Source: an uncultured Planctomycetia bacterium
GTDB lineage: Bacteria > Omnitrophota > Gorgyraeia > Duberdicusellales > 4484-171
Direction: 5' to 3'
Assembly: GCA_964489445.1 (NCBI GenBank)
Contig: CAZAYU010000002.1
Location: forward strand, 77,020-141,019
DNA: 64,000 nt
Below, piece by piece: positions 89-16,381 of this stretch (positions are counted from its first letter, which is position 1; each line of letters opens with the position of its first letter). The notes beneath the pieces were generated by a model, which was given only the letters and a program-made list of their open reading frames with translations, had not been told where the DNA came from and did no database searches. A program made the translations under genes and the position numbers.

Positions 89-3000
89 TTGTCACGGGTT
101 AACGGAAAAGAGGAAGAACATTTGCCTAGCTGGCAGGATAGGTTTTCTGCTCTCAAAGGGTTCTTGGAAAAAGAAGGTATCTCTCAGGATATTTGCATTG
201 CAGTTTCTTATGCTGTCTGTTCCAAGATTGTGGATTCTCGAAAATTAAAATATCGATTACGTTTTTTTCAAAAGTACGGATTCTTAACAGAAAAAGAATG
301 CCGTCTTTTGATTAAAAGAAAATACATTGATTGGGAAAGATTTTCTCAAAGGATAGCGGAAGAGTATAGAGTATTGATAAACTCTTCACAGAAGTTTACG
401 GAGAAACAAGTTAAACTTATTTTAAAAAGAGGGTTTTCTGAGCAAGCAGCATGTGATTTAAAAAATAAATATCGAAAGTATGGAATTACAAAGAGTGAGC
501 TTGTTCAGTCAATGTGTAATCAGGATCCGGAAAAATACTTAGGTAAATTAATCATGCCTCGCGCTAGAGCAGATGGGAATAGAATGATATTTCGAAGGCA
601 TCTGGAAGATGAAATAGGAGTATTTTTCCTTCCAGCGGAAAGAAACGAAATAATAGACGGATTATTAGAATTTATTACTGGGAGGAAATGGGAGCACAAT
701 GAAGTTTTCGTTCGTAAATTAAATAAATTAACCCAATGTAACACTATAACCTTAAAGCAGAAAAATATGCTACTGAATATTGGAAGATATGCTTCCGAAG
801 CGTTTACCAATCAATTTAAACCTAAAGATGTTGCTCAACGGATAAAACAAAATATGATTTTGTATTTGGATCCATCATTGCAGAATGGACTGGTTACTCC
901 CCGGCAAGCTTTATTTTTAGTAGTTAGGGGGTATTTATATCCGGAATTTAAAAGCATTATGAATGAATACTGCTTGACTAAAACTGAGTTGTTGGAGGTT
1001 ATTCATGGGTATAGCAATCCGGGAGAAATTTTGGAAAAACTAAGGCCACAAAGGATTAATTATTTGCATCGAAAAACAAAATTGCCTGAATATTTCATAA
1101 AAATAATATTGATTAAACGGGGCAGCAAGATTACAGATGGATATTTAGAGGATTTGCTTAAAGAAGCAAAATACCTAATTAAAACATACGCAATACCTGT
1201 ATACATTGCTTTGAATTGGTATATCCGAGGCAATAATGCACAAAGCTTTAAGCAAAGGGTAGTCGGTTTAAGCCGACAGGAAGGGCTTCCGATTAGGTTG
1301 ACTTATCACTTATTTTTTCAAAGGGAGCTAACACAGAAAGATATCAATCGAAATATTATTATGCTATCTGAATCCTGTGGGAGAATTCTTCAGGAGAAAA
1401 AGGTGGCATATCAAAAGATGCAGGAGTCGTTATCTGCTTTAGAAAAAGATATTTATCGGGATGTAAGTTTTGTTCAGGCCGTGATTATCCGAAAAAAAAT
1501 CGAACAATTAGTAAAAGCACGTCCGAATAATGAAATATTAAATGGCTTAAAAAAAGAATTTGGGGTTAAGTATCATATACTACAGGAATTAGTAGATTTA
1601 ATTTTTAATCAACTTAAAAATGATAATTTAAGTGAGGCGATTTATTCTGGGGCAAGAAATAAAGGAGTGTCTCTGGCGGTGTATAGAATAGTAGAAGCAA
1701 GAAAGGAAATAAAAAAAATTGCCAAGACTGCTAGCAAAGAAATAACTGATTTTCAAAATAATAATTTAATGTATTTATACCAAAAACGTAAAAAAGCCAG
1801 TGTGAGAGAAAATTCAGAATTGAAAAAATGTTTGTCTGAAAAGATTGTTCAAAGAATATCTGGGAAGCTTGGAGGAGTTTTAGAAGAAAGTGTAATTATA
1901 GAATTAGGAGAAAAGATTATTTCCGGATTTTTTAATACTAAAAATGGAAAAGTAAAAAATAAATTAGAGCGTTTTAGAGAAAATGGATCATTGACTTTGC
2001 AACAATGTGCGCTTGTTGAGTCACACAGGTGGCAGGTGTTTAGTCGGGAAAACTGGCTTGACCGATTATCGGATAATTTAGTATTTGATGTCTCTAGGCT
2101 TAAAAGAGAGTTTGATTTTTCTGATAGTTTGGTAATAAATATTATTCTTAAAGGATATTATTACTCTTGGATTTGCGAGTTATATAGGCAATACCCTCAT
2201 CTTAAAAAATCCTTTTTAGACAGAATGTTTCGTGCTGAATTTCCGGAAAAATATCTTTTATGTCATTGTGGGCCATTGGATAGAGAGGTTAAAGCTGCTC
2301 AAGTTTTTATGAAAGAGCTGACCAAAAGTACTGATTTTTCTCTACCGAAGCAGGTTGAGGAGCTGTTAAGTCAGGATTATACATATCGGCAGTTAGTAGT
2401 TTTGGTATTGAATGCCAGGGTTAACCATTCAGAGTCAAATATTAGTTTAGGTAAGCAAGCGGCTCGTTATTTTGTTCAAGCGCATCTTTCAATTGCTGAA
2501 GAAATTGCTAAGGAATATCGTTATCGGTATTGTAGCAGGCAATGTATTCAAGAGGGAACAACGGCTTTATACGAAGCCTTAAAAAGTTATACTCCGGATT
2601 ATCAAAGCGAAAACGGATTTCCGGAACATGCGCGTAAGTTTATAAAACAGCGATATGAACAAATATTAAAAATGACAAGGAAGGATTATCAAAACCAAAA
2701 TTACCATTCTGTGAGTATTGATGCGCCGGCATATGGTGATTCTAGCCGAATTACAAAGCAGGAGATATTGGGTGTTAATGACATAGCCTCTGGTTTTGGA
2801 AATAATCTTCATCAGCTTAATCCGGAAGATAACATTATTTTTTCTGAAAAAGCTCAAAATGGATCAATAAAGCAAAAAGAAGAAAGGGAAGACCTAAGGA
2901 AAAATATTTTTTCAGATGTTGCAAGAAAACTTTATCAGCAAAAAAATATTTCTTCTGCTTGGTTAGAAATTTTATTAAGTGAAATTAATCAATATTCCGG

Positions 3001-6000
3001 AGATTCGGAAGATCTTTCTCAGCAATTTAATGTCGACGTTGAGGAGGTCGAGAAATGCCTTAAAATTGGGTTAGCAAAAATAGGTGAGCATATTATTGCT
3101 CATCCAGAGTTGATTGCACATTTTTCTATTTCTGCTGTTTCAGAAGTTAAACAGAAAAAAGGAACTTTGCAGTATGAGGAAAAAAAGGGTTCTAGTTCAG
3201 CATTAAAGGTAGTTGAACATTTATGTTGCAATGAAGAATTTATTGAAATTACTAACTGTGCTTCTTATCGTCATTTACGTTCTCCGCCTAAAAAGATAGT
3301 TATCCCTGAATGCAGCTACAGTCTCGCCAGATTTTTTCGCTTGTCTTTTGGCAGGGCAAGCTCGCCAGTAAATCAAGACAAAAATATTGCTTTCAAATAT
3401 AATCAAAATAATCCGGAGTCTATCATCGCTGAAACTTTCCTTGCTCGAATGTACGGAAACATAAATCCTGATAGAAAGGCTAAGATACTCTGGCAGCTAT
3501 TATTAGGAGCGGGGATAATTCCTTTTTGGCAGACAGCAAAGATAATATCAAAAACTATTATTTTTATGGTTTGGGCTACTTTTTGTTTCAAGTGGAACCA
3601 AAAATACAGAGAGCAGTTTTTTAAGACAGTCAAGGAAGACCTTAGTTGCCGCTATAGTAAGACTGCGTATATCGGCAATCAGACGACCGCGTGTAGAGTA
3701 GATTTTAAAGAAAGAATACAGAATAGAAAAATTGTGGAAGAGTTTACTCAATGCATAAGAAAAATATTCTCCTCCGTTATATTTATCTGGTGTTTTACAA
3801 CATTTTCTTGTTTGATGAAATTTGTTGATACGCTTGATGGACGTGCTGTAATAGTGTATTGTTTTGGTCTTCCAGAAATGGTGTTGTTTTTTGTTATATT
3901 GCCTGCGGCTGCATATTTATTCCTGATTAATGTGATCTATAATATCGACGTAATAGTTAGAGATTTAGAAAAATCTTTAGCTATAGAAACATCTATTATT
4001 TCGAGAAAATCTTCTTCTAATTGCGATAACAGTTCTAGCTCGTCGATTGAACGTAGATATACATCAAGTTTAAGAGAAATTAGCCATATTGGTGAAATTA
4101 TCAGGGAGTTAATCCGAAAAGATCCCTTTGCGGCTTTTTCATTTAATAATGAAAAACTTTGGATGCAAATTGTTCCGGATAAGAGTAATTGTCTGCGGTA
4201 TGTAATTTATCCTGAGGTTGGAGAGGTGCGTAGGCTATTTTTTCTAAGGGCGTTAAACAAACCGGTCGGTGATCCCTTTGTCGCTCCTTCTGGATCGTTA
4301 GGCCAAATTATTTTTTTCCTGAATAATTCTATTGAAATAGAAAAATTAGCCAGTGGTATGTTTTTGGAGGTGCAATCAAACATATGGCTGCGGCGGATGA
4401 ATCCAGAAATGCGTAATCTCCTTTTGCGCTGGATTATTTCGGCAGTTCAGCATATTATTTCAGCCGCGCATAAAGAGGGAATTTACGATTTTTACGCTTC
4501 GACTCCAAAATTTATAAAGAGTATATATTTAAGAGACGGCATAAGACTGGACCAAGGAAATTTAAAGAAACACTATCAACGGCCGTTTAGGCGACAATGG
4601 CAGAAAAAGGATATAGAAGTTTTAGATAAATATGTTAACTATACAGATAGTAATATTGTTCCACTTTGGTACTACAACAGAGAAAGTCGTTTATTAAAAA
4701 GCAGTAGCTCAATAAGTATTATTTCTGGCAAAGAACCGGAACCAATATCGGCAGTAAAGATAAATACTAACCCATTGACATCTAGCCAACAGGTATACCT
4801 AGAGAATGCTGCTAAAGGAAGAAAAATTCCTAGTTATTACTTAAATGTTATTTTTGAAAAATTCCGCAAATTAGAATTGATTAGTTCAGAAAGAGAATCT
4901 TGGGATAGATGCAGGCCTATTGTTCGGCTAGAAGCATTAAGAGTAGCCATGGCGAACCATTGGATAAAGCCGGGTAATATTAGCTTTTTAGAAGAAGTTA
5001 TCCGAAACCCGTTATCTCCGAAACAGCAAGATATTTTAGAGTTAATTTTAGATTTAGAACTTGATGTTCGGAATTTTTCACGAACGTACCAGATATTAGC
5101 TGATAAATTTAAAATAACTGTAAATTCTGTGGCGAATAACCATGTCAGACAGATATACAAAAAATTAAAAGTTAATTCTGGTTTAATTAAATCTGGATGG
5201 GGCCTAGTTGAGGCAGCAAAAATAGCAGCAGAAAGTGGATATATAAAATATGATGTTTCTAAATATGAAAGATTTGTGCAGAAATATTCTAAAATAGAAT
5301 TAACTGTTGGAGAGAAAAAATGTTTGATAAAGCAGATTTTTGGTATCGATAGTGAATATGTAAGGTCGCGTGACGCAAAGTTGATGAATGCAATGAGTAG
5401 CTGTAACCGGAGAATACGCAACAAATTGGGCATTCGCAAGAAATGGAATCGAGGCGATAGCATGATGCCGGTAGCAGATTATGTTTTACGGCAAGATATG
5501 ATTTCTACTGAAGACATAGTTACAGTTGCCGTGAGCTTGCCGTACATTACCAAAATATTTAGTGTAGATTTCCTGAAAGTTTATTTTTCTAGAAAACATT
5601 CTGCCAGAGATATAAAGGAAGCTTTTAAAGTATTTTTACCCGGTAATGTCGAAAAAACGAAGAAAATTATTCTTTTTTATATTTGCAATGTAAAACAAAT
5701 TATATATCCACTAACGTCTGGATGTTTAGAAGCTTTAGAAGATGCCTTGAGAGTGAATTTACCGGCAACAGTAAAACAATTTGGGCCGACAGTGTTTTTT
5801 GGTTTATTCGGCGAGGGAGAAAAAGATCTCGGAGCATTGGTAAGAAAATTAATAAGTAAGCGCGTTCATGATTTTAATCCGGGAGATCTTTCTTGCAGGA
5901 AGGAAAAGCTTGCTAGAGTATCAATAAAAGAACCGGAAGAAGAACCAGAGGAAGAATTTAAAACCGCTAATTCCGCTAACGTTGAGGAAATCAAAATGTT

Positions 6001-9000
6001 AACTAAATTTTTTAGTCCAGAGGAATTTGACCCCAACCTTCTCTATAAGGTTGGCGAAAAAATATTAGGAAACGGTTTTCTTTTGCCTGTTTTGGAAGAG
6101 AAAATTGATTTTATAATGGGTTTGCTTTTAGATCGTAACCGAAGGCATGATTATGTTTATGCTTTTTTAATTTTAAAAAAGGCAATGGAGGACCATCCTC
6201 AAAGAACCGCAGAGTTGTTTATTCCGCATCTCTTTTCTAAACAGTTGCCAATTAATAATGACGGGCTACCGTTTATTGAAAAGTTATATAAAGAAAGAAA
6301 TGGCTGGTTTGATTATTTTATTCATAAGCTATGGCCATATTTATCACAACCGTTAAAAAATGATATAAGCCAATTACAGAATCACAAGTCTTTATCATCT
6401 ACGGGTGTTGATTATTGGGGCATGAGCAGCTCATCTATAAATTACAAAAATTATAACGATTATGTTTGCACAAACAAAGAAACTATTGTTGGTTCTTCAG
6501 CGATAAATAATCGGCCGGTTAAATCTTTTACCGAATTAAATAAAGAGGAAGTTTTTAAATTAGTACCTAAAGGGTCCCGGCGGCACACAAGGAATGTTAT
6601 TCGACTAGTTGGGCAAATAGGAAATGTAGTCGGTTTAGCTCAGAAAGAGTTATGTTGTCTAAAATATCTTGCTTGCGCACATGATATTGGCAAGGGAAAC
6701 AAAAATATTTCTCACCTTTTCTTATCTTCAGAAATTTGGGACAAAAATGCAAAAGAAAGAAGGCTAGCCAGAAAACATTCTCGGTATACAGTTGTTATAC
6801 TGGAAAAACATTTTGGCATTCAGCTTCCACATGGCGAACGGCAGATTATTTTTTGGCATAATCGTTTGAAGGCGATTAATTGGAAATGGGTATCTTCGCA
6901 GAATAAGTTATTTTGGTTGATTTTAATCATCGCTGATATTATTGATGGTAGCATTGATACTTCAAGAAAACATAAGGTTGGAAAAAATCTTAAATTTGAT
7001 CCGGCTATGACGCTAAAGCGAATAAGGATAGTGGTTGGTGATTTGCTATCTGCCGATGACAATGTTAAAAAAATATATAATGTAGTTGAACGTTTATGTT
7101 TCAATGAAGAATTTATCGAGACAGCCAACCGCGCTTCCTATCGTCATTTACGTTCTCCGCCTGAAGAAATAGCTATTCCCAAATGTGGTGATAGCGTTAG
7201 TAAATCTGTTTATTCGGGCTGGAAGAATGGAAAGGCTGTTTCTAGCTCTGCAGTGTTTAGAGGAGTAAATTATTCTGCCAGCAAGATAGATATTAAGGAA
7301 ATAAGTATACCTAATATCCGTAATCATCATTATCAAATAATACTTAAAAAAACTAATAATGGTAATTGGCCGGGAATATGCAAGGTTTGGGTTAATTCAA
7401 CCTCAGTAGGTGACCTTGAATATTGGGTGCGTGAAACTCTAGTAGTTCTTAGACGTTTTTATATTAAAAGGAAATATCGAGGGGAGGGTATAGGCCAAAC
7501 GGTTATGCATTTTATTGCTGATTTAGTGTGGGAGAAAAATATTCGTTTTAATACTAAGACATTACTGGGGATAAGCGCTGTTACTGATGCCGTTCTCGTG
7601 CGTACCTTCTGCAATGCTATTGAAAATATTGTTTACGGCTCATTAGACGATCCTAAATCGACAGACAAAGAAGATCTTTTATCTAAAGTAAATAGTGGAG
7701 GAGGATTAAATTTTAGAGGCGATCCGATTGGCTTAAGCGCTCTTTATCCTAAAGAAAAAGAATGGCCTATTTTTTTTGAAAGCGCATCTTCAGTTGTAAA
7801 TGCTGACTATTGTAGCTCTAGTTTGCCGGTTAGTATATCGGATGAATTAATCACAGAAATTAAAGTTTTACGCAGAAGGGATGAGCCAGGTTACTCTAAT
7901 TTTATGCAATTACTGGATAAGGCCAACAGTTATGATATTAAGGCTGCCATAGACAGGATTGAACCTTATTTAAGAAGTTATTTTATATTGTTATTATCTA
8001 AAAAAGATCCTGAAAAATTAATTTTAAAATCAATTTCTCCCATGGATATTCTCCCTCTTGAAAAGATTGCTGATATTTTATCGATAGATTCTAGCGCCTT
8101 CATGATAGCCCAGTCGGCAGATGAATACAAAAATAGTATTTCTTTATATATCCCGGGTGAAACTAAATTGGTTAAGATATTTATCAGGTCGCTTAGTATG
8201 TTGCCGATTACAATATCTCGGTTTGCAGACAATAGGGAGCCGCTACCGCCATATATTAATGAATTTTTAGGCCGGAAAGGCGTCAAGAGCTGCATAATAC
8301 ATGACGGCTATCGCACAAGAGTACAACTGTTTTATGGATTGACTTGGAGATTTTCTATAGATTATTTTGAACTTGATTCTTCTCTTTGGGGCAAAGGTAT
8401 CGGCGATATTTTGTATGTGAATCTTGAACGCTACGCAAAGGAATGCGGGTTTACTGTTATATCGGTTGAAGGAGGATGTCCGGTAGAGCCGAAAAGTGAG
8501 GTGTTTTTTGCTAGGCAGGGATTCTCAGAATCTTTTGCGATTAGAGATGAAGGCGGAAGAGAAAGCAATCCCCAAATGACATTTATTGTGTTTAAAAAAA
8601 TAATTTCTAGCGCATTTGCAGATAACTCTAGCTCTCCAATGGATAAAGAAGATTATAAGGATTTTGGTCAAAAACAAGGATCAAAAGAACAAGCCGCTAA
8701 TGAAAAAGAAGAAATTGAAAATGCTTTGAGAAAAACAAGAGTCAGGAATGAAGCTGCAAAGATTTTTGGTATCTCTCCTGCTCAATTTTACCGGAAAATT
8801 AAAAAACATGGCATTGATCTAAACACATTTTCGAAAAAAAAGGGACGGCTTTCTGATATTACAAAAGAAAAAATGGAGGAATTGATTATCAGACACAAAG
8901 GTTCTGTTGCCGCTATAGCTTATGAATTGAAGGTGTCTGGCACAGCGGTTTCTCTCTTATTAAAAAAATATGGACAAGCAGATTGGGCCAAGGAACAAAG

Positions 9001-12000
9001 AAAAAAATATGGCAAAATAATAAATAAAAAACGTTTTCAAATGATGATGTCTTCCTGGAAAAAGAATAGAAAAACTGCGGTAAGAGAAGTAACCAGAATT
9101 TGCTTTGGTGAAGAGAATATCAACGCGGATGATGAAATATTTTTTTGGGAAAAAGAAAATCGGATAAAAGTGACAAAAATATTGGATGCTGTAGTAAAGG
9201 ATATTATCGGAGAAGGGTTTCATGTGATACCCGAAATCAGGAGGAACAAATTTATTTTGGCTTGTGGCTTAAGAGAGTTATTGGTAAGCGCTAAAGCGGC
9301 TTCTTCCCGGGAACTATTAAAGGAAGCTGGATTGATTCCGGCTGGAAACTGTTTAGATGGCTTAGAAGTAAGTAGCTCTGCGTTGTTTAATTTTGGTTGG
9401 AGGTTGGCTTTACCGGTAAGTAGAGCGATTAATCATTATTCGCTTAAATGCTTTAGAGTAAAGCAGCCAAAAAGCAATTTAATAGTTATTGATGTGAAGA
9501 TAGGAAAGGAAAAAAAAGGATGCATAAAGTCATTAAGTAGCAAGCGTTTGATTTTGTCTGCCGGAGAAAGTTTGCCATTTAAGTCCTGTGAAATAATAGA
9601 TGTTAAAAGTATTGAATTTATCGAAAAAGATAGCCGGAAAAAATCCAGCTCTTCACTTAAAACAATAGGATTTGGTTCATCTGATTTATCGTTTGACAGG
9701 TGTCACAAAGAAGCACAAAGATTAATTAAGACTTTGCAATATAAAGGCATACCCTGGACAGATGCTTATATGCGGGTATTGCCGGAGGTAGAAAAGGTTA
9801 CGAAAAAATATCCGGATAAATGGTTTATATCAGCAATTAATTTGGGTATAGCAATTACAAAAGAAGGTCTTCTTCCTTGCCCAATATTATATTACGGTGT
9901 GGGGCTAGCAGTTATAAGCTCTAATGCAAGCTTTGACCAGTATAAACAAAATCTTAATTGTCTAAAATATTGGGCGGAAGAAATAAGCCGAATTGTTTGG
10001 AAAAATGTAAATGAGGAAGGTGAGAAATATAATTTTAGACAGATAAGCACAACAAAGAGTAAAAATATAATTTGGAGAAATACTGCTTATAGGAAAATAG
10101 ATGATTCGCTAAAAAGTATTGAAGTCAATGGAATAACCAGTTCAAGGCGTTTACGAACTGCGTTGGATGAGTCTTCTGGCTATTCAATAAATTGGCCTTC
10201 CAGTTGTCTAGTTACGTTTTGTAGTGATCAATCCGAGTATAAAAATTACATAATACGTTTTTTATCTAGATGTTTGGGTAATGGGCATTCGAAGAATGTA
10301 AATGTAAAGGAAAGATTGGAAGAGAATGTTTCAAGTTCATCGGTAGAGATAGTATTTAATTCACCAGATTGGGAGGCCATTAGGAATACAGAGCTTTTTT
10401 CTGTAGTTGTGCCTATTTCCGGTCGTACCGATGATTACAATATATTTTATCAAAAGACATATGATTGGCTATTATATTTTTTCCGATTATCTTTGTTTAA
10501 AGAGCAAATCGCAGATTTATTGTCATATACTTTGGCGGAGATATTTCACGATGCAGTAAGAAAAAATTTAGATTTGCGTGCAGCGTATTCACTTTCCGGA
10601 TTTTTTGTTTTGGATAATAGTACAGAATGCGCACCGGTATATTTAAATGCGGAATTTATTCAAAAAGCAAATAGTCAGACTGATTATCAATGGTTGCTTT
10701 CAACTCAGAAAGAATATGCAAAACAAGGTCCGGATTATTTATTAAGTGAAAAGATTCAAAAAAACAGACAAGATATTGATGATGATTTTAGGTATGGATT
10801 AGCGCAATTCGCTAGATTAATTTATGAGTTGCCTTGTTGTCTAAAGTATGCGGTAAGCTCTATAGCGCCTTTTAAAACTACAGTAGAATTTACTGTCAAA
10901 ATTATGAATTTACCTGATTTTGTAGAAAAAGATGTTCCAATTTGTACATTGAAAAAAGAAAAATTGCAAAAAGCAAAAGTGTTACTTACGAGCGAATTAT
11001 CAAAATGGAAGAATCAGTTAGACCTAACTTTAGCGTTTAGCGGGCAAGAAAATCGTGAGCATATTTTTTTCCGTAAAGGTTTAATGCAGTTATCAATGAA
11101 AAATCTTATTAGTTTACGGACATTTGAAGAAATTAGAGAGGTATTATTAAGTGCGCATAAGATTATTTTTAAAATACATGAAAATATCATAACTTTACCA
11201 TCTTTATCAGGAAAAGAAAAACTTAAAATTTCTTCAGGACGATTAGCAAATATAAACTTTAACTGTGCATTTTTAAAGCAATGGCTTGGAGAACTTTTTA
11301 AGGAAATAGAGGTTATTGAAAATATTGGTCATCATTCAAACGGAAAAGCTAAAGTAAGAACACTTTTGCCTAAAAAAGTCAGTTCTTCAATTATGAAAGC
11401 AGAGAAAGAAGCTATTACCTCACTGGCGGTTATTTCTTGTTTGACTAGAGGAGAAGAAGAATTATCTTTGTTGGATACCTCCTTTTATTTCCCGCAGTAC
11501 CTGCGAAAAAAAACAAGCGAATTTGTCTATGGTTCAAATAATCCGGTTTCTTCTTCGGCGGTTAAAAGTAATGAATATTTATTTGGCCTCAAAATCATCA
11601 GCATGAAAATTATTTACTCAGAGAACCCGGAAAGTGTTTTAGAACAAATTCTACAGCTTAGCATGCGTTTTGCGGTTGAAGACGGAGAAATGCTGATGAC
11701 AAAAGAGTATATAAAAGATGAGATCGAAAATGATTCCAAAGATTTCAATTTAGCCTTTGTTGATGCCGCCGGAGTAATTATTGGATATCTTTTGACTCAA
11801 GAATCTCCGCGTCATCCCAATGCCTTGTGGTTTACTTTTATGGGAGTAGAGAAGGAACGCAGGAATAAAGGTTTTGCAAAGATGATGATGAAAATCGCCG
11901 CCTTGAAGGCTGTAGAATATAATATAGAAAGGATAAAATTAGGAGTAAGAAAAGAGAATAAAATAGCTATCGCTATGTATGAAAGATGCGGGTTTCAAAG

Positions 12001-15000
12001 AGATCCAATAACTTATTTTAAAAGCGAAAAAGAGGAAATTAATTTCCAAGATTATTCGGAAACGATGAGTAAAAAATATGGTTTTAAAATGAGCTCTCAA
12101 GATAAAATCACAATTGACGGAGTTGGCTATGAATTTGTGGATTTCTCTGCTGTGCCGTCTGAGATAGTAAAAAGTATAATAAACACTTCGTCGTTAGAAT
12201 TAAACGAGGAATTTAAGGAGTCGCGTATTATTGCCTTTGGTTTAAATTATAACCCTAGATTAACCAGCTTCCTGCGGGTTATAAGCACATTAATTGAAGT
12301 GTATGGGCGCTTTAAGGAAAAAGACATCAGTTTACGAATCGTTCGCCTCTGGGATGAACAGGAGTTGAATTTTGAGAAACCGATAGAGTGCTATACTTTT
12401 CAAATTTCTCATAGTGAGCAAATTAAATTGGTTATCGAGAGCAAAACAAGATCTAAGGAAGCAGTTGTTGAGGCAATGAATATCGTTGCCTGTCTTCTGA
12501 CGCAACCGGAATTTGAAAACGGATTAAACTGTCGTAATGCTCCTGAAAAACAAAAATTCGATGAGCTCTTCCATAAATTTAGAATAATTTTGTCTTTGGA
12601 AGGATCGTCGCCTGATTCTCCTCTTTCTGTTGCTACCGCTGCCTCACCGAAGAGCACTAGCTCGCCTGTTAATAAAAATTGGCGCCAGAAACTTATAAAT
12701 GCCGCAGATGATTTAAGAGTATTAAAATTGGAAGGTATTATTTTAAGCCGGCTTAGTGATTTCGAAAGAACAATACTGCAAAAGCGTACGGAATTTCCTC
12801 CGGTAGATAGAAAAAATGTGGCTGCTGAACTAGGGTATCCAGTATGGAAGGTAGCCAATATTGAGCGAATGCTTTCGGTAAAGGTTCCGGCACTGTTAAA
12901 ATTATGGAAACATGCCGATGCAGTCTTAATAGCATTATTCAACGGCTGTAGGGTAAATATTAATTATATCGGTATAAAAAATATAGATTTGCTCAGCCGG
13001 ATGATTGAACCTGCTGTTCGTTTCAGTAAGAAAGAGACCGAATTAATGAAATTTTTGTGTCAGATTATCGAATACAGAGAACAAAAAAGCAGCGAAATTA
13101 ATAGTCTTATAGTAATCAAAAGAGAAATGTCTTTAGGAATTTTTCAAGTTAAACCATCTACGTGGAGAATATTTGTTCAGAACTTCCGTGGTACAGATGA
13201 TCCTCTTTCTTCATCATCTCTGGTTTTTAGTTCCAGTTTGTCGACGGAAATAGAAGAAGTAATTGCACAGACATTAACGTCTGTCGCCTCGCCGGTGAGT
13301 ATAAGTGAAAAAAGAATCAGGAAAGTAAGAATATTTTTAAAAGAGCACCTTAATCCTAACATCATCGGTATTATAGTACACGGCTCTACAGCTAGAGGTG
13401 ATGCCTTAGAAGAAAGCGATTTTGATTTTGGTTTAATTAAAATAAACGGCGATTTTACTTATGAATTGACTCAGGCGGACCTAGATTTTCACAGAGGGCT
13501 TTTAAGATGTTTGGCACCTGTGAAGGTAGATAACCAGCTTAAACCTCTAATTTGGAAAGGAGAGGAGGCTTTTAATAAATTTGTAAGTTTATATTTTTTG
13601 GAACGCAAATACGCTACTGCCATTGAAGATGTACCGTGGGTTAATAAGCTGGAAGCTTTTATTAAAAGTTACCGCATAATTGCGAGAAACAAAGAGCTGG
13701 AAAATATAATTTATCAAAGAATAGAGGATGCTAGAAAATCGATTATGAAATCTGTACGAAATAAAGAAAATAAAACAGCTTTTACCAGCTCGTCAATAGA
13801 TGGTAGCAAGAGGCAAAGGATTAATAATCTGGCTGAATATAAGAGGCTAATGAAATTGAATGCACAGTTGTTAGTACGAAGTAACACTGTTTCTTCGAGC
13901 TTTCCGGCGGAAAAAGATGGAGAGGTAGAACGCTCTTTGATAAGTGTGGATTCTTTTATGGATTTTACAGGGCCGGTTTATTATCCTGCCAGCGAATTGG
14001 ATTTAGAAAGTATGGTTTGGTTGGCGAGATTATTTCCAAAACTTAAGATGTTGATGTATGTCGATGTTTTGGATCCGGATGAAATGAATGCAGCAACTGT
14101 TTTTAAACCAGAGGAAGATGACGGTGAAGGTGTTAGTGGAGCATTTCGATATTATGGGCCCGACGATATGTCATTATTGCAGCGTCAGATGCAAAATAAA
14201 CTATCTCAATTTCAATATCATAATGAGGCTATTATTGATTACAAAAATACTGGGGTAGATATTATTTCGGTTGAAGACATGGAATTGCTACTTAAGGTAT
14301 CTTTTAAAAGAAACATCAAAAAAGCCCCGTGGCTAAATAGCAGAGTTATAGAAATTAATTTTTTAGTTTGTGATATTTTTGATTACAAAAAAATATTTAA
14401 CGTAATTTATGTTAACTATCCCGGATATTGTGGTGGCTTAGCAAGAGTAGAAGAATTTTGGGTATTAATGCGTAAGCAGATTTCTGAGCAGGGATGTTTG
14501 TTAGAGACAAATATACATCGTAAAACACCTAAAACTAGAGTTTTTAAGAAGAAACTTTTTTCTAAGACGGACCAGATAAAATTAACCCAATATCCGCGCA
14601 TAGATGTTTTACGACCGATAAAAATTATCTCTGCCTCGCCGCTAAACTACTCGAACTTAGCATTGGGTTCAGTAAGAGAATCCAGGGTTAGCTCGACAAT
14701 AAGTCATTGTTCCAAAGTTGTTTCGATAAGAAAATTAACGCTTGCTGATTTTGATGTGTCTAATTACTCATCTTCTTCTGTATCCGCAAGTTCTAATTTA
14801 GTGACAAGTAGTATTCTCGGTAATTTATACAATATGAGAAACATGTTCATTGCGTATCAGGATATTCTTAGTAGTTCCGGGAAGATGATTCAAGCGTGGG
14901 TTAATGAGTCAATAGCTGCTATGTATAAGCCGGATATTAGGTCAAAAGAGATCAGAAGAGCAAAAAAGATTACAGAGCTAATGCCTGATCCTCAAAGAAT

Positions 15001-15991
15001 AAGTCTTACGGACAATGGAAGATATAACTGGTTTGGTTGGTTTAATCTTGAGAATATTGATGTTTGGCGGATTTTAGGGTTTGGATGTATTGATCCTTGT
15101 CAATTTTGTCTACAGGAAAATGTAAAATCAAAAGCAGTTAATTATCCATTACCGGTGATTATCAAGTTGGTAATTGAAGAGAACCCAGCAGCGCAATTTA
15201 ATTTTTGGCATAATAATGAACCGTTTCAGTGGTATGATCCGTTTTTTAAGAGTTCCTTAGACGGACTAATTGAATTTACTGTACGACGATATCCGCATAT
15301 GTTTTTTTATGTGACAACAAGAGGCTTTGAATTGAGTGATTGTCGTTCAGAAAAGACTGCCAGAAATATTTGCAATTTGGTAAATGAATATCCGCAACTA
15401 AAGAATCGTATTTTTAATGTTTCTTTTCATCTTTGCTTAGGAACTCTTAAGTATGACATTATCCGCGCGATAGCATATCGGGGTAAACAGCCAGAAATAT
15501 TTAATCAAGTCCGAAAAAATTATATTGAAAGGTATAGAAATATCTTTTCAGCTTTAAACAGTGCAATTCAAAGAATTTATATTTATCGAGACGGTCCAAA
15601 TAATTTTTTAGGAGAAATTAATTGGGATATTTTTGCTAAAGCAACTCAAGAGATAGGGAGGCACGAATGGCAGGTAGAGTCACATACGATAGGCAATCAT
15701 GATTCTTATAATAAAAGCAGGGATTTTATCAACAGGCTTAAGCAGGCATTTAATGGCAAATATGTTAGGGCTTCTTATATGAGAATACAGAACCGGGATT
15801 TTATTCCAGAGGATAACGTTCCTCAGATAGAGACATTCAAGAGTGGAAAAGTTATTATTCGCAGTAATGGGGAGGAAATTGCAAGATCGACATTAGTTGA
15901 CTTAGATTATCATCCAGAAGCTGCGCTGAGAATTAATGGGTGCGGATTAGGTGTTGAGAGCAATTATGGTGCACCAATAAATGTTCAGTAA
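89..15991 (+). CDS. Giant multidomain protein of at least 5300 aa. The 5' end is uncertain. The first in-frame start-like codon is TTG at 89; a TTG at 122 has a GAGGA Shine-Dalgarno 7 nt upstream. The same frame is open, with no stop, back to window position 2, so the gene may begin upstream of the window.
   Basis: Single stop-free frame of 15.9 kb in an AT-rich sequence, which is impossible by chance. Codon and composition usage match the neighbouring genes. Multiple enzyme and HTH motifs are recognisable (listed as separate features). No N-terminal signal peptide. Confidence 0.85.
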   Translation: MSRVNGKEEEHLPSWQDRFSALKGFLEKEGISQDICIAVSYAVCSKIVDSRKLKYRLRFFQKYGFLTEKECRLLIKRKYIDWERFSQRIAEEYRVLINSSQKFTEKQVKLILKRGFSEQAACDLKNKYRKYGITKSELVQSMCNQDPEKYLGKLIMPRARADGNRMIFRRHLEDEIGVFFLPAERNEIIDGLLEFITGRKWEHNEVFVRKLNKLTQCNTITLKQKNMLLNIGRYASEAFTNQFKPKDVAQRIKQNMILYLDPSLQNGLVTPRQALFLVVRGYLYPEFKSIMNEYCLTKTELLEVIHGYSNPGEILEKLRPQRINYLHRKTKLPEYFIKIILIKRGSKITDGYLEDLLKEAKYLIKTYAIPVYIALNWYIRGNNAQSFKQRVVGLSRQEGLPIRLTYHLFFQRELTQKDINRNIIMLSESCGRILQEKKVAYQKMQESLSALEKDIYRDVSFVQAVIIRKKIEQLVKARPNNEILNGLKKEFGVKYHILQELVDLIFNQLKNDNLSEAIYSGARNKGVSLAVYRIVEARKEIKKIAKTASKEITDFQNNNLMYLYQKRKKASVRENSELKKCLSEKIVQRISGKLGGVLEESVIIELGEKIISGFFNTKNGKVKNKLERFRENGSLTLQQCALVESHRWQVFSRENWLDRLSDNLVFDVSRLKREFDFSDSLVINIILKGYYYSWICELYRQYPHLKKSFLDRMFRAEFPEKYLLCHCGPLDREVKAAQVFMKELTKSTDFSLPKQVEELLSQDYTYRQLVVLVLNARVNHSESNISLGKQAARYFVQAHLSIAEEIAKEYRYRYCSRQCIQEGTTALYEALKSYTPDYQSENGFPEHARKFIKQRYEQILKMTRKDYQNQNYHSVSIDAPAYGDSSRITKQEILGVNDIASGFGNNLHQLNPEDNIIFSEKAQNGSIKQKEEREDLRKNIFSDVARKLYQQKNISSAWLEILLSEINQYSGDSEDLSQQFNVDVEEVEKCLKIGLAKIGEHIIAHPELIAHFSISAVSEVKQKKGTLQYEEKKGSSSALKVVEHLCCNEEFIEITNCASYRHLRSPPKKIVIPECSYSLARFFRLSFGRASSPVNQDKNIAFKYNQNNPESIIAETFLARMYGNINPDRKAKILWQLLLGAGIIPFWQTAKIISKTIIFMVWATFCFKWNQKYREQFFKTVKEDLSCRYSKTAYIGNQTTACRVDFKERIQNRKIVEEFTQCIRKIFSSVIFIWCFTTFSCLMKFVDTLDGRAVIVYCFGLPEMVLFFVILPAAAYLFLINVIYNIDVIVRDLEKSLAIETSIISRKSSSNCDNSSSSSIERRYTSSLREISHIGEIIRELIRKDPFAAFSFNNEKLWMQIVPDKSNCLRYVIYPEVGEVRRLFFLRALNKPVGDPFVAPSGSLGQIIFFLNNSIEIEKLASGMFLEVQSNIWLRRMNPEMRNLLLRWIISAVQHIISAAHKEGIYDFYASTPKFIKSIYLRDGIRLDQGNLKKHYQRPFRRQWQKKDIEVLDKYVNYTDSNIVPLWYYNRESRLLKSSSSISIISGKEPEPISAVKINTNPLTSSQQVYLENAAKGRKIPSYYLNVIFEKFRKLELISSERESWDRCRPIVRLEALRVAMANHWIKPGNISFLEEVIRNPLSPKQQDILELILDLELDVRNFSRTYQILADKFKITVNSVANNHVRQIYKKLKVNSGLIKSGWGLVEAAKIAAESGYIKYDVSKYERFVQKYSKIELTVGEKKCLIKQIFGIDSEYVRSRDAKLMNAMSSCNRRIRNKLGIRKKWNRGDSMMPVADYVLRQDMISTEDIVTVAVSLPYITKIFSVDFLKVYFSRKHSARDIKEAFKVFLPGNVEKTKKIILFYICNVKQIIYPLTSGCLEALEDALRVNLPATVKQFGPTVFFGLFGEGEKDLGALVRKLISKRVHDFNPGDLSCRKEKLARVSIKEPEEEPEEEFKTANSANVEEIKMLTKFFSPEEFDPNLLYKVGEKILGNGFLLPVLEEKIDFIMGLLLDRNRRHDYVYAFLILKKAMEDHPQRTAELFIPHLFSKQLPINNDGLPFIEKLYKERNGWFDYFIHKLWPYLSQPLKNDISQLQNHKSLSSTGVDYWGMSSSSINYKNYNDYVCTNKETIVGSSAINNRPVKSFTELNKEEVFKLVPKGSRRHTRNVIRLVGQIGNVVGLAQKELCCLKYLACAHDIGKGNKNISHLFLSSEIWDKNAKERRLARKHSRYTVVILEKHFGIQLPHGERQIIFWHNRLKAINWKWVSSQNKLFWLILIIADIIDGSIDTSRKHKVGKNLKFDPAMTLKRIRIVVGDLLSADDNVKKIYNVVERLCFNEEFIETANRASYRHLRSPPEEIAIPKCGDSVSKSVYSGWKNGKAVSSSAVFRGVNYSASKIDIKEISIPNIRNHHYQIILKKTNNGNWPGICKVWVNSTSVGDLEYWVRETLVVLRRFYIKRKYRGEGIGQTVMHFIADLVWEKNIRFNTKTLLGISAVTDAVLVRTFCNAIENIVYGSLDDPKSTDKEDLLSKVNSGGGLNFRGDPIGLSALYPKEKEWPIFFESASSVVNADYCSSSLPVSISDELITEIKVLRRRDEPGYSNFMQLLDKANSYDIKAAIDRIEPYLRSYFILLLSKKDPEKLILKSISPMDILPLEKIADILSIDSSAFMIAQSADEYKNSISLYIPGETKLVKIFIRSLSMLPITISRFADNREPLPPYINEFLGRKGVKSCIIHDGYRTRVQLFYGLTWRFSIDYFELDSSLWGKGIGDILYVNLERYAKECGFTVISVEGGCPVEPKSEVFFARQGFSESFAIRDEGGRESNPQMTFIVFKKIISSAFADNSSSPMDKEDYKDFGQKQGSKEQAANEKEEIENALRKTRVRNEAAKIFGISPAQFYRKIKKHGIDLNTFSKKKGRLSDITKEKMEELIIRHKGSVAAIAYELKVSGTAVSLLLKKYGQADWAKEQRKKYGKIINKKRFQMMMSSWKKNRKTAVREVTRICFGEENINADDEIFFWEKENRIKVTKILDAVVKDIIGEGFHVIPEIRRNKFILACGLRELLVSAKAASSRELLKEAGLIPAGNCLDGLEVSSSALFNFGWRLALPVSRAINHYSLKCFRVKQPKSNLIVIDVKIGKEKKGCIKSLSSKRLILSAGESLPFKSCEIIDVKSIEFIEKDSRKKSSSSLKTIGFGSSDLSFDRCHKEAQRLIKTLQYKGIPWTDAYMRVLPEVEKVTKKYPDKWFISAINLGIAITKEGLLPCPILYYGVGLAVISSNASFDQYKQNLNCLKYWAEEISRIVWKNVNEEGEKYNFRQISTTKSKNIIWRNTAYRKIDDSLKSIEVNGITSSRRLRTALDESSGYSINWPSSCLVTFCSDQSEYKNYIIRFLSRCLGNGHSKNVNVKERLEENVSSSSVEIVFNSPDWEAIRNTELFSVVVPISGRTDDYNIFYQKTYDWLLYFFRLSLFKEQIADLLSYTLAEIFHDAVRKNLDLRAAYSLSGFFVLDNSTECAPVYLNAEFIQKANSQTDYQWLLSTQKEYAKQGPDYLLSEKIQKNRQDIDDDFRYGLAQFARLIYELPCCLKYAVSSIAPFKTTVEFTVKIMNLPDFVEKDVPICTLKKEKLQKAKVLLTSELSKWKNQLDLTLAFSGQENREHIFFRKGLMQLSMKNLISLRTFEEIREVLLSAHKIIFKIHENIITLPSLSGKEKLKISSGRLANINFNCAFLKQWLGELFKEIEVIENIGHHSNGKAKVRTLLPKKVSSSIMKAEKEAITSLAVISCLTRGEEELSLLDTSFYFPQYLRKKTSEFVYGSNNPVSSSAVKSNEYLFGLKIISMKIIYSENPESVLEQILQLSMRFAVEDGEMLMTKEYIKDEIENDSKDFNLAFVDAAGVIIGYLLTQESPRHPNALWFTFMGVEKERRNKGFAKMMMKIAALKAVEYNIERIKLGVRKENKIAIAMYERCGFQRDPITYFKSEKEEINFQDYSETMSKKYGFKMSSQDKITIDGVGYEFVDFSAVPSEIVKSIINTSSLELNEEFKESRIIAFGLNYNPRLTSFLRVISTLIEVYGRFKEKDISLRIVRLWDEQELNFEKPIECYTFQISHSEQIKLVIESKTRSKEAVVEAMNIVACLLTQPEFENGLNCRNAPEKQKFDELFHKFRIILSLEGSSPDSPLSVATAASPKSTSSPVNKNWRQKLINAADDLRVLKLEGIILSRLSDFERTILQKRTEFPPVDRKNVAAELGYPVWKVANIERMLSVKVPALLKLWKHADAVLIALFNGCRVNINYIGIKNIDLLSRMIEPAVRFSKKETELMKFLCQIIEYREQKSSEINSLIVIKREMSLGIFQVKPSTWRIFVQNFRGTDDPLSSSSLVFSSSLSTEIEEVIAQTLTSVASPVSISEKRIRKVRIFLKEHLNPNIIGIIVHGSTARGDALEESDFDFGLIKINGDFTYELTQADLDFHRGLLRCLAPVKVDNQLKPLIWKGEEAFNKFVSLYFLERKYATAIEDVPWVNKLEAFIKSYRIIARNKELENIIYQRIEDARKSIMKSVRNKENKTAFTSSSIDGSKRQRINNLAEYKRLMKLNAQLLVRSNTVSSSFPAEKDGEVERSLISVDSFMDFTGPVYYPASELDLESMVWLARLFPKLKMLMYVDVLDPDEMNAATVFKPEEDDGEGVSGAFRYYGPDDMSLLQRQMQNKLSQFQYHNEAIIDYKNTGVDIISVEDMELLLKVSFKRNIKKAPWLNSRVIEINFLVCDIFDYKKIFNVIYVNYPGYCGGLARVEEFWVLMRKQISEQGCLLETNIHRKTPKTRVFKKKLFSKTDQIKLTQYPRIDVLRPIKIISASPLNYSNLALGSVRESRVSSTISHCSKVVSIRKLTLADFDVSNYSSSSVSASSNLVTSSILGNLYNMRNMFIAYQDILSSSGKMIQAWVNESIAAMYKPDIRSKEIRRAKKITELMPDPQRISLTDNGRYNWFGWFNLENIDVWRILGFGCIDPCQFCLQENVKSKAVNYPLPVIIKLVIEENPAAQFNFWHNNEPFQWYDPFFKSSLDGLIEFTVRRYPHMFFYVTTRGFELSDCRSEKTARNICNLVNEYPQLKNRIFNVSFHLCLGTLKYDIIRAIAYRGKQPEIFNQVRKNYIERYRNIFSALNSAIQRIYIYRDGPNNFLGEINWDIFAKATQEIGRHEWQVESHTIGNHDSYNKSRDFINRLKQAFNGKYVRASYMRIQNRDFIPEDNVPQIETFKSGKVIIRSNGEEIARSTLVDLDYHPEAALRINGCGLGVESNYGAPINVQ
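2530..2700 (+). other. Sigma-70 region-2-like segment inside the giant ORF (CIQEGTTALYEALKSYTPDYQSENGFPEHARKFIKQRYEQIL).
   Basis: Resembles the sigma-70 r2 consensus (LIQEGNxGLMKAVEKFDPxxGxxFSTYAxxWIRQAI) in spacing and residue classes. Motif-level only. Confidence 0.35.
3208..3313 (+). repeat. Copy A of a 35-aa intragenic motif (VVEHLCCNEEFIEITNCASYRHLRSPPKKIVIPEC).
   Basis: About 80% nucleotide identity over roughly 105 nt to copy B at 7082..7186. The same reading frame is conserved. Confidence 0.85.
3480..3960 (+). other. Cluster of 3-4 hydrophobic, putative transmembrane, segments inside the giant ORF, about aa 1131-1291.
   Basis: Stretches IIFMVWATFCFKW, IFSSVIFIWCFTTFSCLM and AVIVYCFGLPEMVLFFVILPAAAYLFLINVIY are each 13-30 consecutive hydrophobic residues. 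Confidence 0.5.
5012..5180 (+). other. LuxR/GerE-type helix-turn-helix module inside the giant ORF (LSPKQQDILELILDLELDVRNFSRTYQILADKFKITVNSVANNHVRQIYKKLKV).
   Basis: Matches the LuxR-type pattern LSxRExxVLxLxxxGxSxxEIAxxLxISxxTVxxHxxxIxxKL. Confidence 0.45.
6590..6900 (+). other. HD-domain phosphohydrolase-like module inside the giant ORF. The HD dyad is at nt 6680..6685 (H2198-D2199).
   Basis: RRHTRNVIRLVGQIG...LKYLACAHDIGK has the HD-superfamily signature of a first His followed by the xxHDIGK motif. His and Asp residues further downstream fit the metal-ligand positions. Confidence 0.5.
7082..7186 (+). repeat. Copy B of the 35-aa intragenic motif (VVERLCFNEEFIETANRASYRHLRSPPEEIAIPKC).
   Basis: Paired with copy A at 3208..3313. 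The two copies are 3874 nt apart. Confidence 0.85.
7447..7640 (+). other. GNAT acetyltransferase-like core number 1 inside the giant ORF (RRFYIKRKYRGEGIGQTVMHF...).
   Basis: Matches the acetyl-CoA-binding motif A pattern R-x-x-G-x-G/A (YRGEGIGQTVM). Confidence 0.45.
8368..8500 (+). other. GNAT acetyltransferase-like core number 2 inside the giant ORF (LWGKGIGDILYVNLERYAKECGFTVISVE).
   Basis: WGKGIGDIL followed by an aromatic/acidic and GF segment is typical of GNAT motifs A and B. Confidence 0.4.
8707..8975 (+). other. Two tandem Fis/NtrC-type HTH motifs inside the giant ORF (NALRKTRVRNEAAKIFGISPAQFYRKIKKHGIDL and EELIIRHKGSVAAIAYELKVSGTAVSLLLKKYG).
   Basis: Both fit the C-terminal HTH of sigma-54 activators and Fis (AL..T.GN...AA..LGISR.TLYRKLKKYGI). 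Confidence 0.5.
11790..12010 (+). other. GNAT acetyltransferase-like core number 3 inside the giant ORF (VEKERRNKGFAKMMMKIAALKAVEYNIERIKLGVRKENKIAIAMYERCGFQ).
   Basis: RRNKGFAKMMM (motif A) followed by AIAMYERCGF (motif B, YxxxGF) is classic GNAT spacing. Confidence 0.5.
12737..12900 (+). other. Sigma-70 region-4-like HTH inside the giant ORF (LSDFERTILQKRTEFPPVDRKNVAAELGYPVWKVANIERMLSVKV).
   Basis: Resembles the r4 pattern LxxRERxVLxLRF...TLxEVGxxxGVTRERIRQIExKAL. Confidence 0.3.
13361..13445 (+). other. Minimal Pol-beta-type nucleotidyltransferase motif inside the giant ORF (IIGIIVHGSTARGDALEESDFDFGLI).
   Basis: hG[GS]x9-13Dh[DE]h signature: HGSTARGDALEESDFDF. Confidence 0.5.
15078..15988 (+). 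other. C-terminal radical-SAM-like segment of the giant ORF. Cys codons lie at nt 15086, 15098 and 15107 (C5000-x3-C5004-x2-C5007).
   Basis: GFGCIDPCQFC is a CxxxCxxC cluster. It is followed by WHNNEPFQW (GGEP-like) and YVTTRGF (TNG-like) at the expected spacing for a radical SAM core. Confidence 0.4.
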
Positions 15992-16069: not shown

Positions 16070-16381
16070 ATGAATATTCAAGGATTGAAGAATCGCAGGT
16101 TATTTGAAAGAACTCCTTGCGCTCTTCTGGGAGACTACAACAATAGCAATCATAAGGCAGTAGGAACCAAGTGCTATGACATATCTACAACTGGTGCCGG
16201 ATTATTTCTGTTTGAACGTCTAGCTAAGGGATTTGAAATGCAGCTTAACCTGATTACTAAAAAAATAGCGCCTTTATCTTTAGCCGGAAAAATTTGCTGG
16301 TGCCGAAAGGAAGCCACTGGCTATCGGGCTGGAATCGCTTTTAATAAAAGTTTAAATCTTCCCTTAGAGGCACTTGCCTAA
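16070..16381 (+). CDS. PilZ-domain protein, a putative c-di-GMP receptor.
   Basis: RRLFER (RxxxR) and DISTTGAGL (DxSxxG) motifs. A strong AAGGAGG Shine-Dalgarno lies 7 nt upstream. The start is 79 nt downstream of the giant ORF stop. Confidence 0.6.
   Translation: MNIQGLKNRRLFERTPCALLGDYNNSNHKAVGTKCYDISTTGAGLFLFERLAKGFEMQLNLITKKIAPLSLAGKICWCRKEATGYRAGIAFNKSLNLPLEALA

Follow-up and report, generated by a model that had tools for sequence, protein, structure and literature searches.

The 64-kilobase (kb) window analysed here, a stretch of contig CAZAYU010000002.1, opens inside a giant gene whose 6,616-amino-acid (aa) product, P0001, has a modular build. Homology searches indicate that P0001 is a string of autonomous cassettes, typically ~190-400 aa long, and that the relatives of each cassette occur in other long modular proteins. 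Every recognisable cassette, both in P0001 and in a second giant protein of the same genome, is bounded by a short junction of three or four serines (Ser) followed by an aliphatic residue. Judging from its sequence, we are inclined to regard P0001 as a modular giant protein of the Omnitrophota, of the “signal-transduction/regulatory, TM-only” (transmembrane-only) class, that is, as a single membrane-anchored chain carrying autonomous cassettes.

The open reading frame (ORF) is uninterrupted on the + strand from nucleotide (nt) 2 of the window to a stop at nt 15991. The frame is already open at the window edge: the window holds the C-terminal 5,330 codons, and the start lies ~3.86 kb upstream of it, in a database copy of the sequence (P0001, on ENA contig ERZ27315617:k141_159262) from which the full gene was taken. 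Amino-acid numbers of P0001 modules are counted from nt 89 of the window, and features lie on the + strand unless noted otherwise. A first-pass annotation of the window had placed five DNA-binding-type segments inside one polypeptide, which is borne out, as all five lie where it had put them in this uninterrupted + strand ORF. The giant ORF it described is thus real, but the annotation had missed that the gene is truncated by the window edge, that the full product reaches 6,616 aa and that this product probably falls among the giant modular proteins already described for the Omnitrophota. On the ENA contig, a second giant gene, with a product of at least 12,639 aa, lies 72 nt upstream of the P0001 gene; comparison of the two adjacent giants revealed no mutual similarity. 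The three best genome matches of the ClpB encoded in the window are Candidatus Omnitrophota metagenome-assembled genomes (79%, 72% and 72% identity), indicating that the host is an Omnitrophota bacterium. The phylum is known for giant genes (bioRxiv 10.64898/2026.06.07.730766; bioRxiv 10.1101/2023.11.21.568195).

Cassettes and their serine junctions

No full-length homologue of P0001 was found among 5.8 billion proteins in a word-indexed search with a 5,000-aa query, which recovered only P0001 itself. An exhaustive HMMER search of 1.84 billion representative sequences with aa 2113-3312 returned 21 significant matches, each to a single cassette, and 20 of the 21 homology blocks are confined to one inter-junction interval. 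The HD-domain cassette (aa 2137-2370, nt 6497-7198), which has a weak Pfam HD match, is matched by P0002 and P0016, more strongly by the former (40% identity, E value 4e-44). Two GNAT cassettes were recognised by domain search and through their homologues: the first (aa 2396-2547, nt 7274-7729) is matched by P0003 and P0004, and the second (aa 2603-2844, nt 7895-8620) by nine proteins. A pair of helix-turn-helix (HTH) units is matched by four proteins, as is a cassette of unknown function (aa 3202-3310, nt 9692-10018) common to P0009, P0011, P0012 and P0020. For aa 780-1810, a metagenome scan yielded no relatives.

Serine runs are far more frequent in the giants than composition predicts. P0001 contains 21 runs of three or more serines, compared with 3.4 ± 1.8 in composition-matched shuffles (maximum 10 in 500 shuffles), and the visible 3,308 aa of the upstream giant contain 10, with 1.3 expected; in the 41 ordinary proteins of the window, 4 runs were counted against 4.5 expected. 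The residue that follows the run is hydrophobic at 18 of 21 sites in P0001, 9 of 10 in the upstream giant and 2 of 4 in the ordinary proteins, the background being 38%. The first junction stands at residue 20 of P0001, after a short leader. Nineteen sites fall within nt 3191-14878 of the window. Read from the N-terminal side, they are kkgSSSalk (3191-3199), the double junction rkSSSncdnSSSSSier (4010-4045), llkSSSSisi (4700-4711), which opens a LuxR-like cassette, wgmSSSSiny (6425-6436), kavSSSavf (7241-7249), dycSSSlpv (7814-7822), adnSSSpmd (8627-8635), levSSSalf (9371-9379), rkkSSSSlkt (9644-9655), envSSSSvei (10331-10342), kkvSSSimk (11381-11389), npvSSSavk (11549-11557), the double junction dplSSSSlvfSSSlst (13208-13237), aftSSSidg (13787-13795), ntvSSSfpa (13892-13900), snySSSSvsa (14768-14779) and the atypical run dilSSSgkm (14870-14878), which has no aliphatic residue after the serines.

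Related motifs surround the homologous cassettes of other proteins, within ~20-40 aa of the cassette, as (S)SSP[VAL] in P0003-5, P0012-14 and P0020 or as [AS]ASPLA in P0011. Their density in these relatives is ~2-6 per thousand amino acids (kaa), compared with 0.1-0.3 expected. P0009 instead carries DNGG four times in 558 aa, a possible junction variant. Loci with junction motifs comprise the window, the upstream giant (L001:2-9925), L082, L083, L084, L085 and L086, while eleven long ORFs (1.2-1.6 kaa) of other bacteria contain one such site in ~15 kaa.

The junctions of the window, of L083:8962-21806 and of L084:25-15372 were also compared at the nucleotide level. All six Ser codons occur in the Ser runs, a point in favour of selection at the protein level. 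Nevertheless, AGCTC is present in 18 of 36 of them, compared with 8.9 ± 2.6 expected from Ser codon usage (P ~0.001). The Ser codon preceding proline is TCG at 13 of 21 sites in P0012 (background 9%) and at 26 of 33 in P0011 (background 13%), usually followed by CCG, and P0011 repeats two identical 15-mers, GCCGCCTCGCCGCTG 9 times and AGCGCCTCGCCGCTG 8 times. Taken together, the AGCTC enrichment, the TCG-CCG bias and the repeated 15-mers suggest that the junctions share descent or function at the DNA or RNA level; the pattern may go back to a common origin, to a site of recombination or to a signal in the RNA.

The most direct view of what happens at the junctions is provided by P0005, an ORF fragment that fills a 5.6-kb Joint Genome Institute contig (L082:1-5592) from a different metagenome. 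Over 620 aa, as far as ...KPYKSSSS, P0005 and the upstream giant share 78% identity; right after AAG AGY TCY AGC TCA (K-S-S-S-S), protein and DNA alike cease to resemble each other. Beyond the breakpoint, P0005 continues with modules absent from both giants of this genome, followed by a nucleotidyltransferase cassette and a second-type GNAT cassette (42% and 27% identical, respectively, to those of P0001), and ends in another cassette of the upstream giant at 72% identity. In both partners, junction motifs delimit every block. The ratio of nonsynonymous to synonymous substitution rates (dN/dS) in the two blocks shared with the upstream giant is 0.18 and 0.16, indicating that the shared cassettes are under purifying selection. 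These alignments indicate that cassettes are exchanged between giant genes at the Ser junctions. A 41-aa repeat offers a smaller example: one copy (nt 7082-7204) is the C-terminal tail of the HD cassette, while the other (nt 3209-3331; 66% identity, E value 3e-13; consensus VVE[HR]LC.NEEFIE..N.ASYRHLRSPP..I.IP.C.) stands isolated between two junctions and looks like debris of cassette exchange.

DNA-binding-type and sigma-like cassettes

Profile and homology matches indicate that a LuxR-type unit, two Fis-type units and a sigma-70-like cassette of P0001 are genuine homologues of DNA-binding or RNA-polymerase-binding families. The Fis/NtrC-type pair, which the first-pass annotation had read at nt 8707-8975, is confirmed, the first unit by Pfam and the second by homology. 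Unit 1 (aa 2872-2910, nt 8702-8818) scores 42.4 bits (E value 5.8e-11) on HTH_8 (PF02954), above the gathering score of 22. Unit 2 (aa 2919-2965, nt 8843-8983) fails the Pfam HTH_8 profile directly, and BLASTP gives no alignment between the two units, which are linked via intermediate sequences only. In the search of 1.84 billion representatives, the pair matched P0007, P0018, P0019 and P0021 (library-wide E values 2.8e-9 to 1e-4), proteins built of tandem ~47-aa units that Pfam calls HTH_8, HTH_23 or HTH_28. Unit 2 alone shows homology to such tandem arrays (P0018, P0021 and P0007) and aligns to their HTH_8 units; P0018 and P0021 pass HTH_8. P0001 thus resembles these arrays in having two consecutive ~47-aa units of the same repeat type, the first of which passes PF02954. 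It differs from them in having two units where the arrays have up to ~nine, and from Fis/NtrC proteins in that its units are not joined to an AAA+ sigma-54 activator domain.

The LuxR-like cassette is composed of three units: u1, which lacks an HTH core, u2 (aa 1634-1712, nt 4988-5224), with its GerE core at nt 5099-5179, and the degenerate u3 (aa 1738-1806, nt 5300-5506). A LuxR/GerE-type HTH had been proposed at nt 5012-5180, and is confirmed indirectly. P0001 aa 1584-1813 align with aa 379-600 of the L083 protein, which is modular, 2,986 aa long and encoded on NCBI contig JBAYNM010000015.1 (27% identity over 238 aa, BLASTP E value 1.8e-9, phmmer 39.7 bits). In the L083 protein, aa 434-482 pass Pfam GerE (39 bits, E value 6.3e-10), and it is these residues that align to nt 5012-5180, which identifies the segment as a LuxR/GerE HTH by way of its homologue. 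The three-unit layout is common to both modules, the third units aligning with each other. Direct evidence is fainter: a match of u2 to PF00196 is present (E value 0.007) but, at 16.4 bits, falls below the gathering score of 23.5, and the NCBIfam NarL match of the segment stands at 0.11. In a PDB sequence search with u2, the NarL DNA-binding domain ranked 2-3 with an alignment along the full domain (E value ~0.45), while a 221-aa piece spanning u2 and u3 retrieved unrelated proteins only.

Small ad hoc hidden Markov models (HMMs) were built from sigma region 4 (r4), GerE and HTH_8 sequences and used for rank and shuffle tests only; the shuffle p-values are lenient because shuffling destroys helical periodicity. 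None of 1,000 shuffles reached the score of u2. Like the NarL/FixJ-type proteins of PF00196, u2 shows the pattern L(S/T)xx(E/Q)xxhL ... HTH ... KLxV. In contrast with them, it carries an 8-residue insertion and, instead of forming the C-terminal end of a response regulator, is part of a three-unit cassette in a giant protein.

The sigma-70-family-like cassette (aa 791-998, nt 2459-3082) contains a region 2 (r2)-like part (nt 2450-2686) and a weak r4-like part (nt 2891-3118). When aa 780-1020 were excised, TIGR02937 (sigma70-ECF, extracytoplasmic function) of NCBIfam gave an E value of 6.2e-5 and 22.7 bits, aligning aa 791-999 to profile positions 2-162 of 165, that is, from r2 through r4. RpoH (NF005143) matched with an E value of 5.8e-5. 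Seven NCBIfam families match the cassette and all are sigma families; no other family matches. Within a 1,100-aa piece, the match weakens to an E value of 0.0037. In the PDB sequence search with the sigma-like segment, all nine matches were to region 2 of SigA, the primary sigma factor, at individually non-significant E values of 0.2-1.1, and the r4-like part at nt 2891-3118 retrieved unrelated proteins and no r4 match; on the ad hoc r4 HMM its score was reached by 11 of 1,000 shuffles, so that it is barely detectable. The cassette shares with ECF-sized sigma factors the region 2 similarity, including the IQEG core-binding motif, a putative r4-like helical segment that follows region 2 at the right distance, and an overall size of ~210 aa, but it is embedded in a 6,616-aa chain.

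Sigma region 2 is not a helix-turn-helix. Of the earlier proposal of an r2-like HTH at nt 2530-2700, the sigma-family similarity therefore stands (E value ~6e-5, below cut-offs), while the count of this segment among the HTHs does not. Pfam reports nothing on the segment.

A fifth segment, proposed as a sigma r4-like HTH at nt 12737-12900, was not confirmed by any curated profile: Pfam and NCBIfam gave no match, and the PDB sequence search returned unrelated proteins only. We retain it as a weakly supported, putative sigma-r4-like HTH (aa 4219-4271, nt 12743-12901) whose helix pattern comes only from a low-confidence model. It scores 7.3 bits on the ad hoc r4 HMM, a score reached by 1 of 1,000 shuffles, and ranks third in 9.9 kaa of giant-protein sequence, behind two LuxR-like units. 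AlphaFold2 single-sequence models of the LuxR-like cassette (aa 1541-1810) and of the r4-like cassette (aa 4197-4373) reached mean predicted local distance difference test (pLDDT) scores of 47.7 and 40.5, and Foldseek searches of the PDB with both models returned nothing below 1e-3, only noise.

One chain or many proteins

A hydropathy scan confines the hydrophobic helices of P0001 to aa 1128-1283. Two strongly hydrophobic membrane helices are predicted at aa 1225-1246 and 1265-1283 (nt 3761-3937; Kyte-Doolittle scan), with weaker ones at ~aa 1128-1170 of the same membrane cassette; the N-terminus is non-hydrophobic and has no signal peptide. Internal helices without a signal peptide point to the TM-only topology found in 46% of long Omnitrophota proteins; 80% of these long proteins are sequence singletons (bioRxiv 10.64898/2026.06.07.730766). 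These features suggest a model where P0001 would be made as one chain, without a signal peptide, and held in the inner membrane by its 2-4 internal helices, the sequence on either side of them lying in the cytoplasm. The cassettes would fold and work independently of one another, and the Ser junctions would act as joints between them. Nucleic acid would be bound by the HTH cassettes and, perhaps, RNA polymerase by the sigma-like one; both would act beside the modifying enzymes of the chain, whether still tethered or once released.

Several observations weigh against a single regulatory chain of this kind. The sigma-like cassette, at 22.7 bits compared with a TIGR02937 cut-off of 42.9, lies below every curated cut-off, and, as judged from the PDB alignment, it lacks the promoter-melting aromatic residues of region 2.3. 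For the segment at nt 12743-12901, an HTH is plausible but its support is ad hoc, and the pLDDT values of both structure models are too low for judging HTH geometry. At 6.6 kaa, P0001 falls under the 10-kaa threshold of the catalogue with which it is compared. Lastly, a strict, lineage-variable junction exceeds the need of a passive linker, which favours its recognition by some factor, for instance a protease, a modification enzyme or recombination machinery.

This last point leads to the possibility, which we consider real but clearly the lesser one, that P0001 is a polyprotein, an “operon in one reading frame” that a lineage-specific protease cuts at the junctions, freeing a sigma-like factor and LuxR-type and Fis-type regulators. 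The first-pass annotation had raised a polyprotein as an alternative, and the recurrent, specific junction between shuffled autonomous modules lends it circumstantial support. The junction is short and strict, is present at every recognisable cassette boundary and first appears at residue 20, after a short leader. Its form depends on the lineage (SSS[LIAV] here, SSSPV in P0012, P0014 and P0020, ASPLA in P0011 and possibly DNGG in P0009), while the cassettes themselves are common to lineages with differing forms. The cassettes are of single-protein size and freely shuffled, and a sigma or transcription factor would be well served by diffusing freely. Cleavage of Omnitrophota giants has been proposed before (West-Roberts et al. 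2023, bioRxiv 10.1101/2023.11.21.568195), and two relatives, P0011 and P0002, have embedded HExxH metalloprotease-like modules. On the other hand, neither a peptidase domain nor HExxH was found in P0001 or in the visible upstream giant, the two proteins of this genome that the search covered; Ser-rich spacers are also common as flexible linkers; and the partial conservation of the junctions at the nucleotide level could mean common descent or a recombination site and not a protein signal.

The protein-level and nucleotide-level signals can also be combined. On this proposal, which we put forward tentatively and rate a little below cleavage as such, the Ser3-4-aliphatic junction (SSSPV and ASPLA in relatives, with a conserved AGC-TCR(-CCG) nucleotide core) would be a lineage-specific processing and assembly signal: the cassette arrays of Omnitrophota giant ORFs would be rebuilt there by recombination and, after translation, cut there into free proteins, including the sigma-like factor and the LuxR-type and Fis-type regulators.

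As to the metalloprotease-like modules of the relatives, that of P0011 (L084:25-15372; aa 1292-1452) has a weak Peptidase_M48 match and that of P0002 reads HESGH at aa ~1055. Both adjoin membrane helices and are candidates for self-processing; P0001 has none. An embedded zinc protease in P0001 was rejected as a candidate, as neither a peptidase profile nor HExxH was found in it.

Two further explanations are unlikely. The HTH-like cassettes might be relics or protein-protein interaction modules that no longer bind nucleic acid and are kept by the need for an open frame. Several units are indeed degenerate, u1 of the LuxR-like cassette has no HTH core, the sigma-like cassette scores far under its family cut-offs, and the isolated 41-aa piece of the HD cassette is an example of tolerated debris. 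Nevertheless, HTH unit 1 is well over the Pfam threshold, the layout of the LuxR-like cassette is kept at 27% identity across distant giants, and purifying selection acts on the cassettes that the neighbouring giant shares with P0005 (dN/dS ~0.17). Marginally less probable still is an array of effectors directed at prey, in which the giant would be delivered to a host cell and its cassettes, like those of MARTX toxins, would reprogram or disable it. Omnitrophota are epibiotic predators or parasites; this lifestyle and the roles proposed for the giant proteins of the phylum speak for such an array, as do the short inter-domain junctions that give P0001 a multi-effector-like layout. However, P0001 has no signal peptide, secretion or translocation domain, and no adhesin or dockerin repeats; no secretion genes flank it, the neighbours being PilZ, ABC transporter and MetH genes; and its cassette types are ordinary cytoplasmic bacterial domains.

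An artefact, whether an assembly chimera or genes merged by sequencing error or an unrecognised genetic code, is very improbable, even though a single assembly of the exact sequence was found: the frame is stop-free over 19.8 kb of 35% GC (guanine plus cytosine) DNA with uniform GC content and skew, dN/dS is 0.17, and the use of six Ser codons in the runs, together with the same continuous cassette-junction-cassette frames on independent contigs of other samples, led us to reject an alternative code and merged genes.

Remaining cassettes, locus and comparison with known systems

Beyond the HD cassette and the first two GNATs, the enzymatic part of P0001 includes a third, RimI-like GNAT cassette (aa 3853-3970, nt 11645-11998; Pfam Acetyltransf_1, 50.9 bits), a nucleotidyltransferase cassette (aa 4391-4559, nt 13259-13765; Pfam NTP_transf_2), homologous to the P0005 module described above, and a C-terminal cassette with a radical-SAM-like CxxxCxxC motif (GCIDPCQFC, nt 15083-15109). 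The last motif was read from the sequence, and its region has no match in Pfam or NCBIfam. With three GNATs, the HD, nucleotidyltransferase and radical-SAM-like cassettes among them, DNA-binding-type modules are interleaved with enzymatic domains as the first-pass annotation had said. That annotation was also right that P0001 is not an adhesin: Pfam finds no adhesin repeats (Ig-like, cadherin, RTX) and there is no signal peptide, so a giant adhesin or RTX-type surface protein was rejected. Its suggestion of a defence sensor did not hold up. PADLOC gives only generic nucleotidyltransferase matches (PDC-S09, E value 3.8e-6) and no other defence model, and a defence-system reading was rejected as well.

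The part of P0001 encoded upstream of the window contains a lanthionine-synthetase-kinase-like stretch as well as one with homology to part of P0012; the latter stretch was read from the sequence as HATPase-like. Within the window, nt 89-2430 (aa 1-780) encode a long helical region in which an L(T/S)xxQxxLLxxRG-type motif recurs and part of the sequence is duplicated, aa 52-184 resembling aa 621-755 (25% identity, E value 6e-4). This region has no family match and could consist of further degenerate HTH-like units. In P0005, aa 1436-1459, in the N-terminal part of the second GNAT cassette, match HTH_23 (E value 7.6e-6); the equivalent stretch of P0001 (nt 7895-8100, aa ~2650-2680; LPLEKIADILSIDSSAFMIAQ) looks like a decayed HTH.

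A PilZ-domain gene (nt 16070-16381) lies directly downstream of the P0001 gene, and the other genes of the window are housekeeping genes of an ordinary chromosome, including an Opp-type ABC transporter, MetH, LysRS, LolCE and ClpB. GC content is 33-37% across the window and GC skew is steadily positive throughout. In three independent loci, namely the window, L084 (15598-16293) and L085 (6777-7478), the modular giant gene that comes last is directly followed by a PilZ gene and this, in turn, by an ABC transporter; in L086 (23345-24124), which has two giant genes in tandem, two PilZ genes lie ~8.5 kb downstream of the second one. The recurrence hints at a conserved locus with fast-changing giant-gene content, and possibly at a link to cyclic di-GMP. 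A scan for transfer RNA genes found none in the 64-kb window, and no Rfam family reached its gathering score there, not even upstream of metH, where a cobalamin riboswitch might have been expected. Two ORFs on the opposite strand, of 208 aa (4837-5463, -) and 177 aa (12409-12942, -), face the LuxR-like and r4-like cassettes and are both probably spurious.

Viral polyproteins and MARTX toxins were compared with P0001 for mode of action, without membership being implied. They share with it autonomous domains, short recurring junctions and a content shuffled among relatives, whereas P0001 has neither a protease domain nor a translocation apparatus. The closer comparison is with the giant proteins of the Omnitrophota, which are a recognised puzzle: does each act as one chain, or is it cleaved? 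West-Roberts et al. (2023) raised cleavage, and cleavage points have remained undescribed, which blocks domain-wise analysis (bioRxiv 10.1101/2023.11.21.568195). In a later survey, Module 1 of these giants comprises methyltransferase, HATPase, GNAT, HAD and HD domains, and 94% of the giants catalogued above a 10-kaa threshold carry TM helices or a signal peptide (Nielsen and Lui 2026, bioRxiv 10.64898/2026.06.07.730766). P0001 resembles the “multi-enzyme”, Module 1 and TM-only members of this class. It comes from the same phylum, is encoded by one of two tandem giant genes and is unique in sequence overall; it tiles unrelated domains (GNAT, HD, an N-terminal HATPase-like part and a radical-SAM-like motif); and it has internal membrane helices without a signal peptide. 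It differs in length, 6.6 kaa compared with the 10-kaa catalogue cut-off, a length that its neighbour exceeds with at least 12.6 kaa.

The transcription-factor-type cassettes (sigma-like, LuxR-type and Fis-type) add to the repertoire of Omnitrophota giants. HTH, sigma and LuxR content, linkers, a junction motif and shuffling go unmentioned in both descriptions of the class (bioRxiv 10.64898/2026.06.07.730766; bioRxiv 10.1101/2023.11.21.568195). The junction motif offers a rule for cutting giants into units for structure prediction and names exact sites for which metaproteomes can be searched; if cleavage proved true, bacteria would turn out to use polyproteins on a scale without a described precedent. 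The class of giant proteins to which P0001 is compared has been described already, and the junction motif is possibly a new property of that class.

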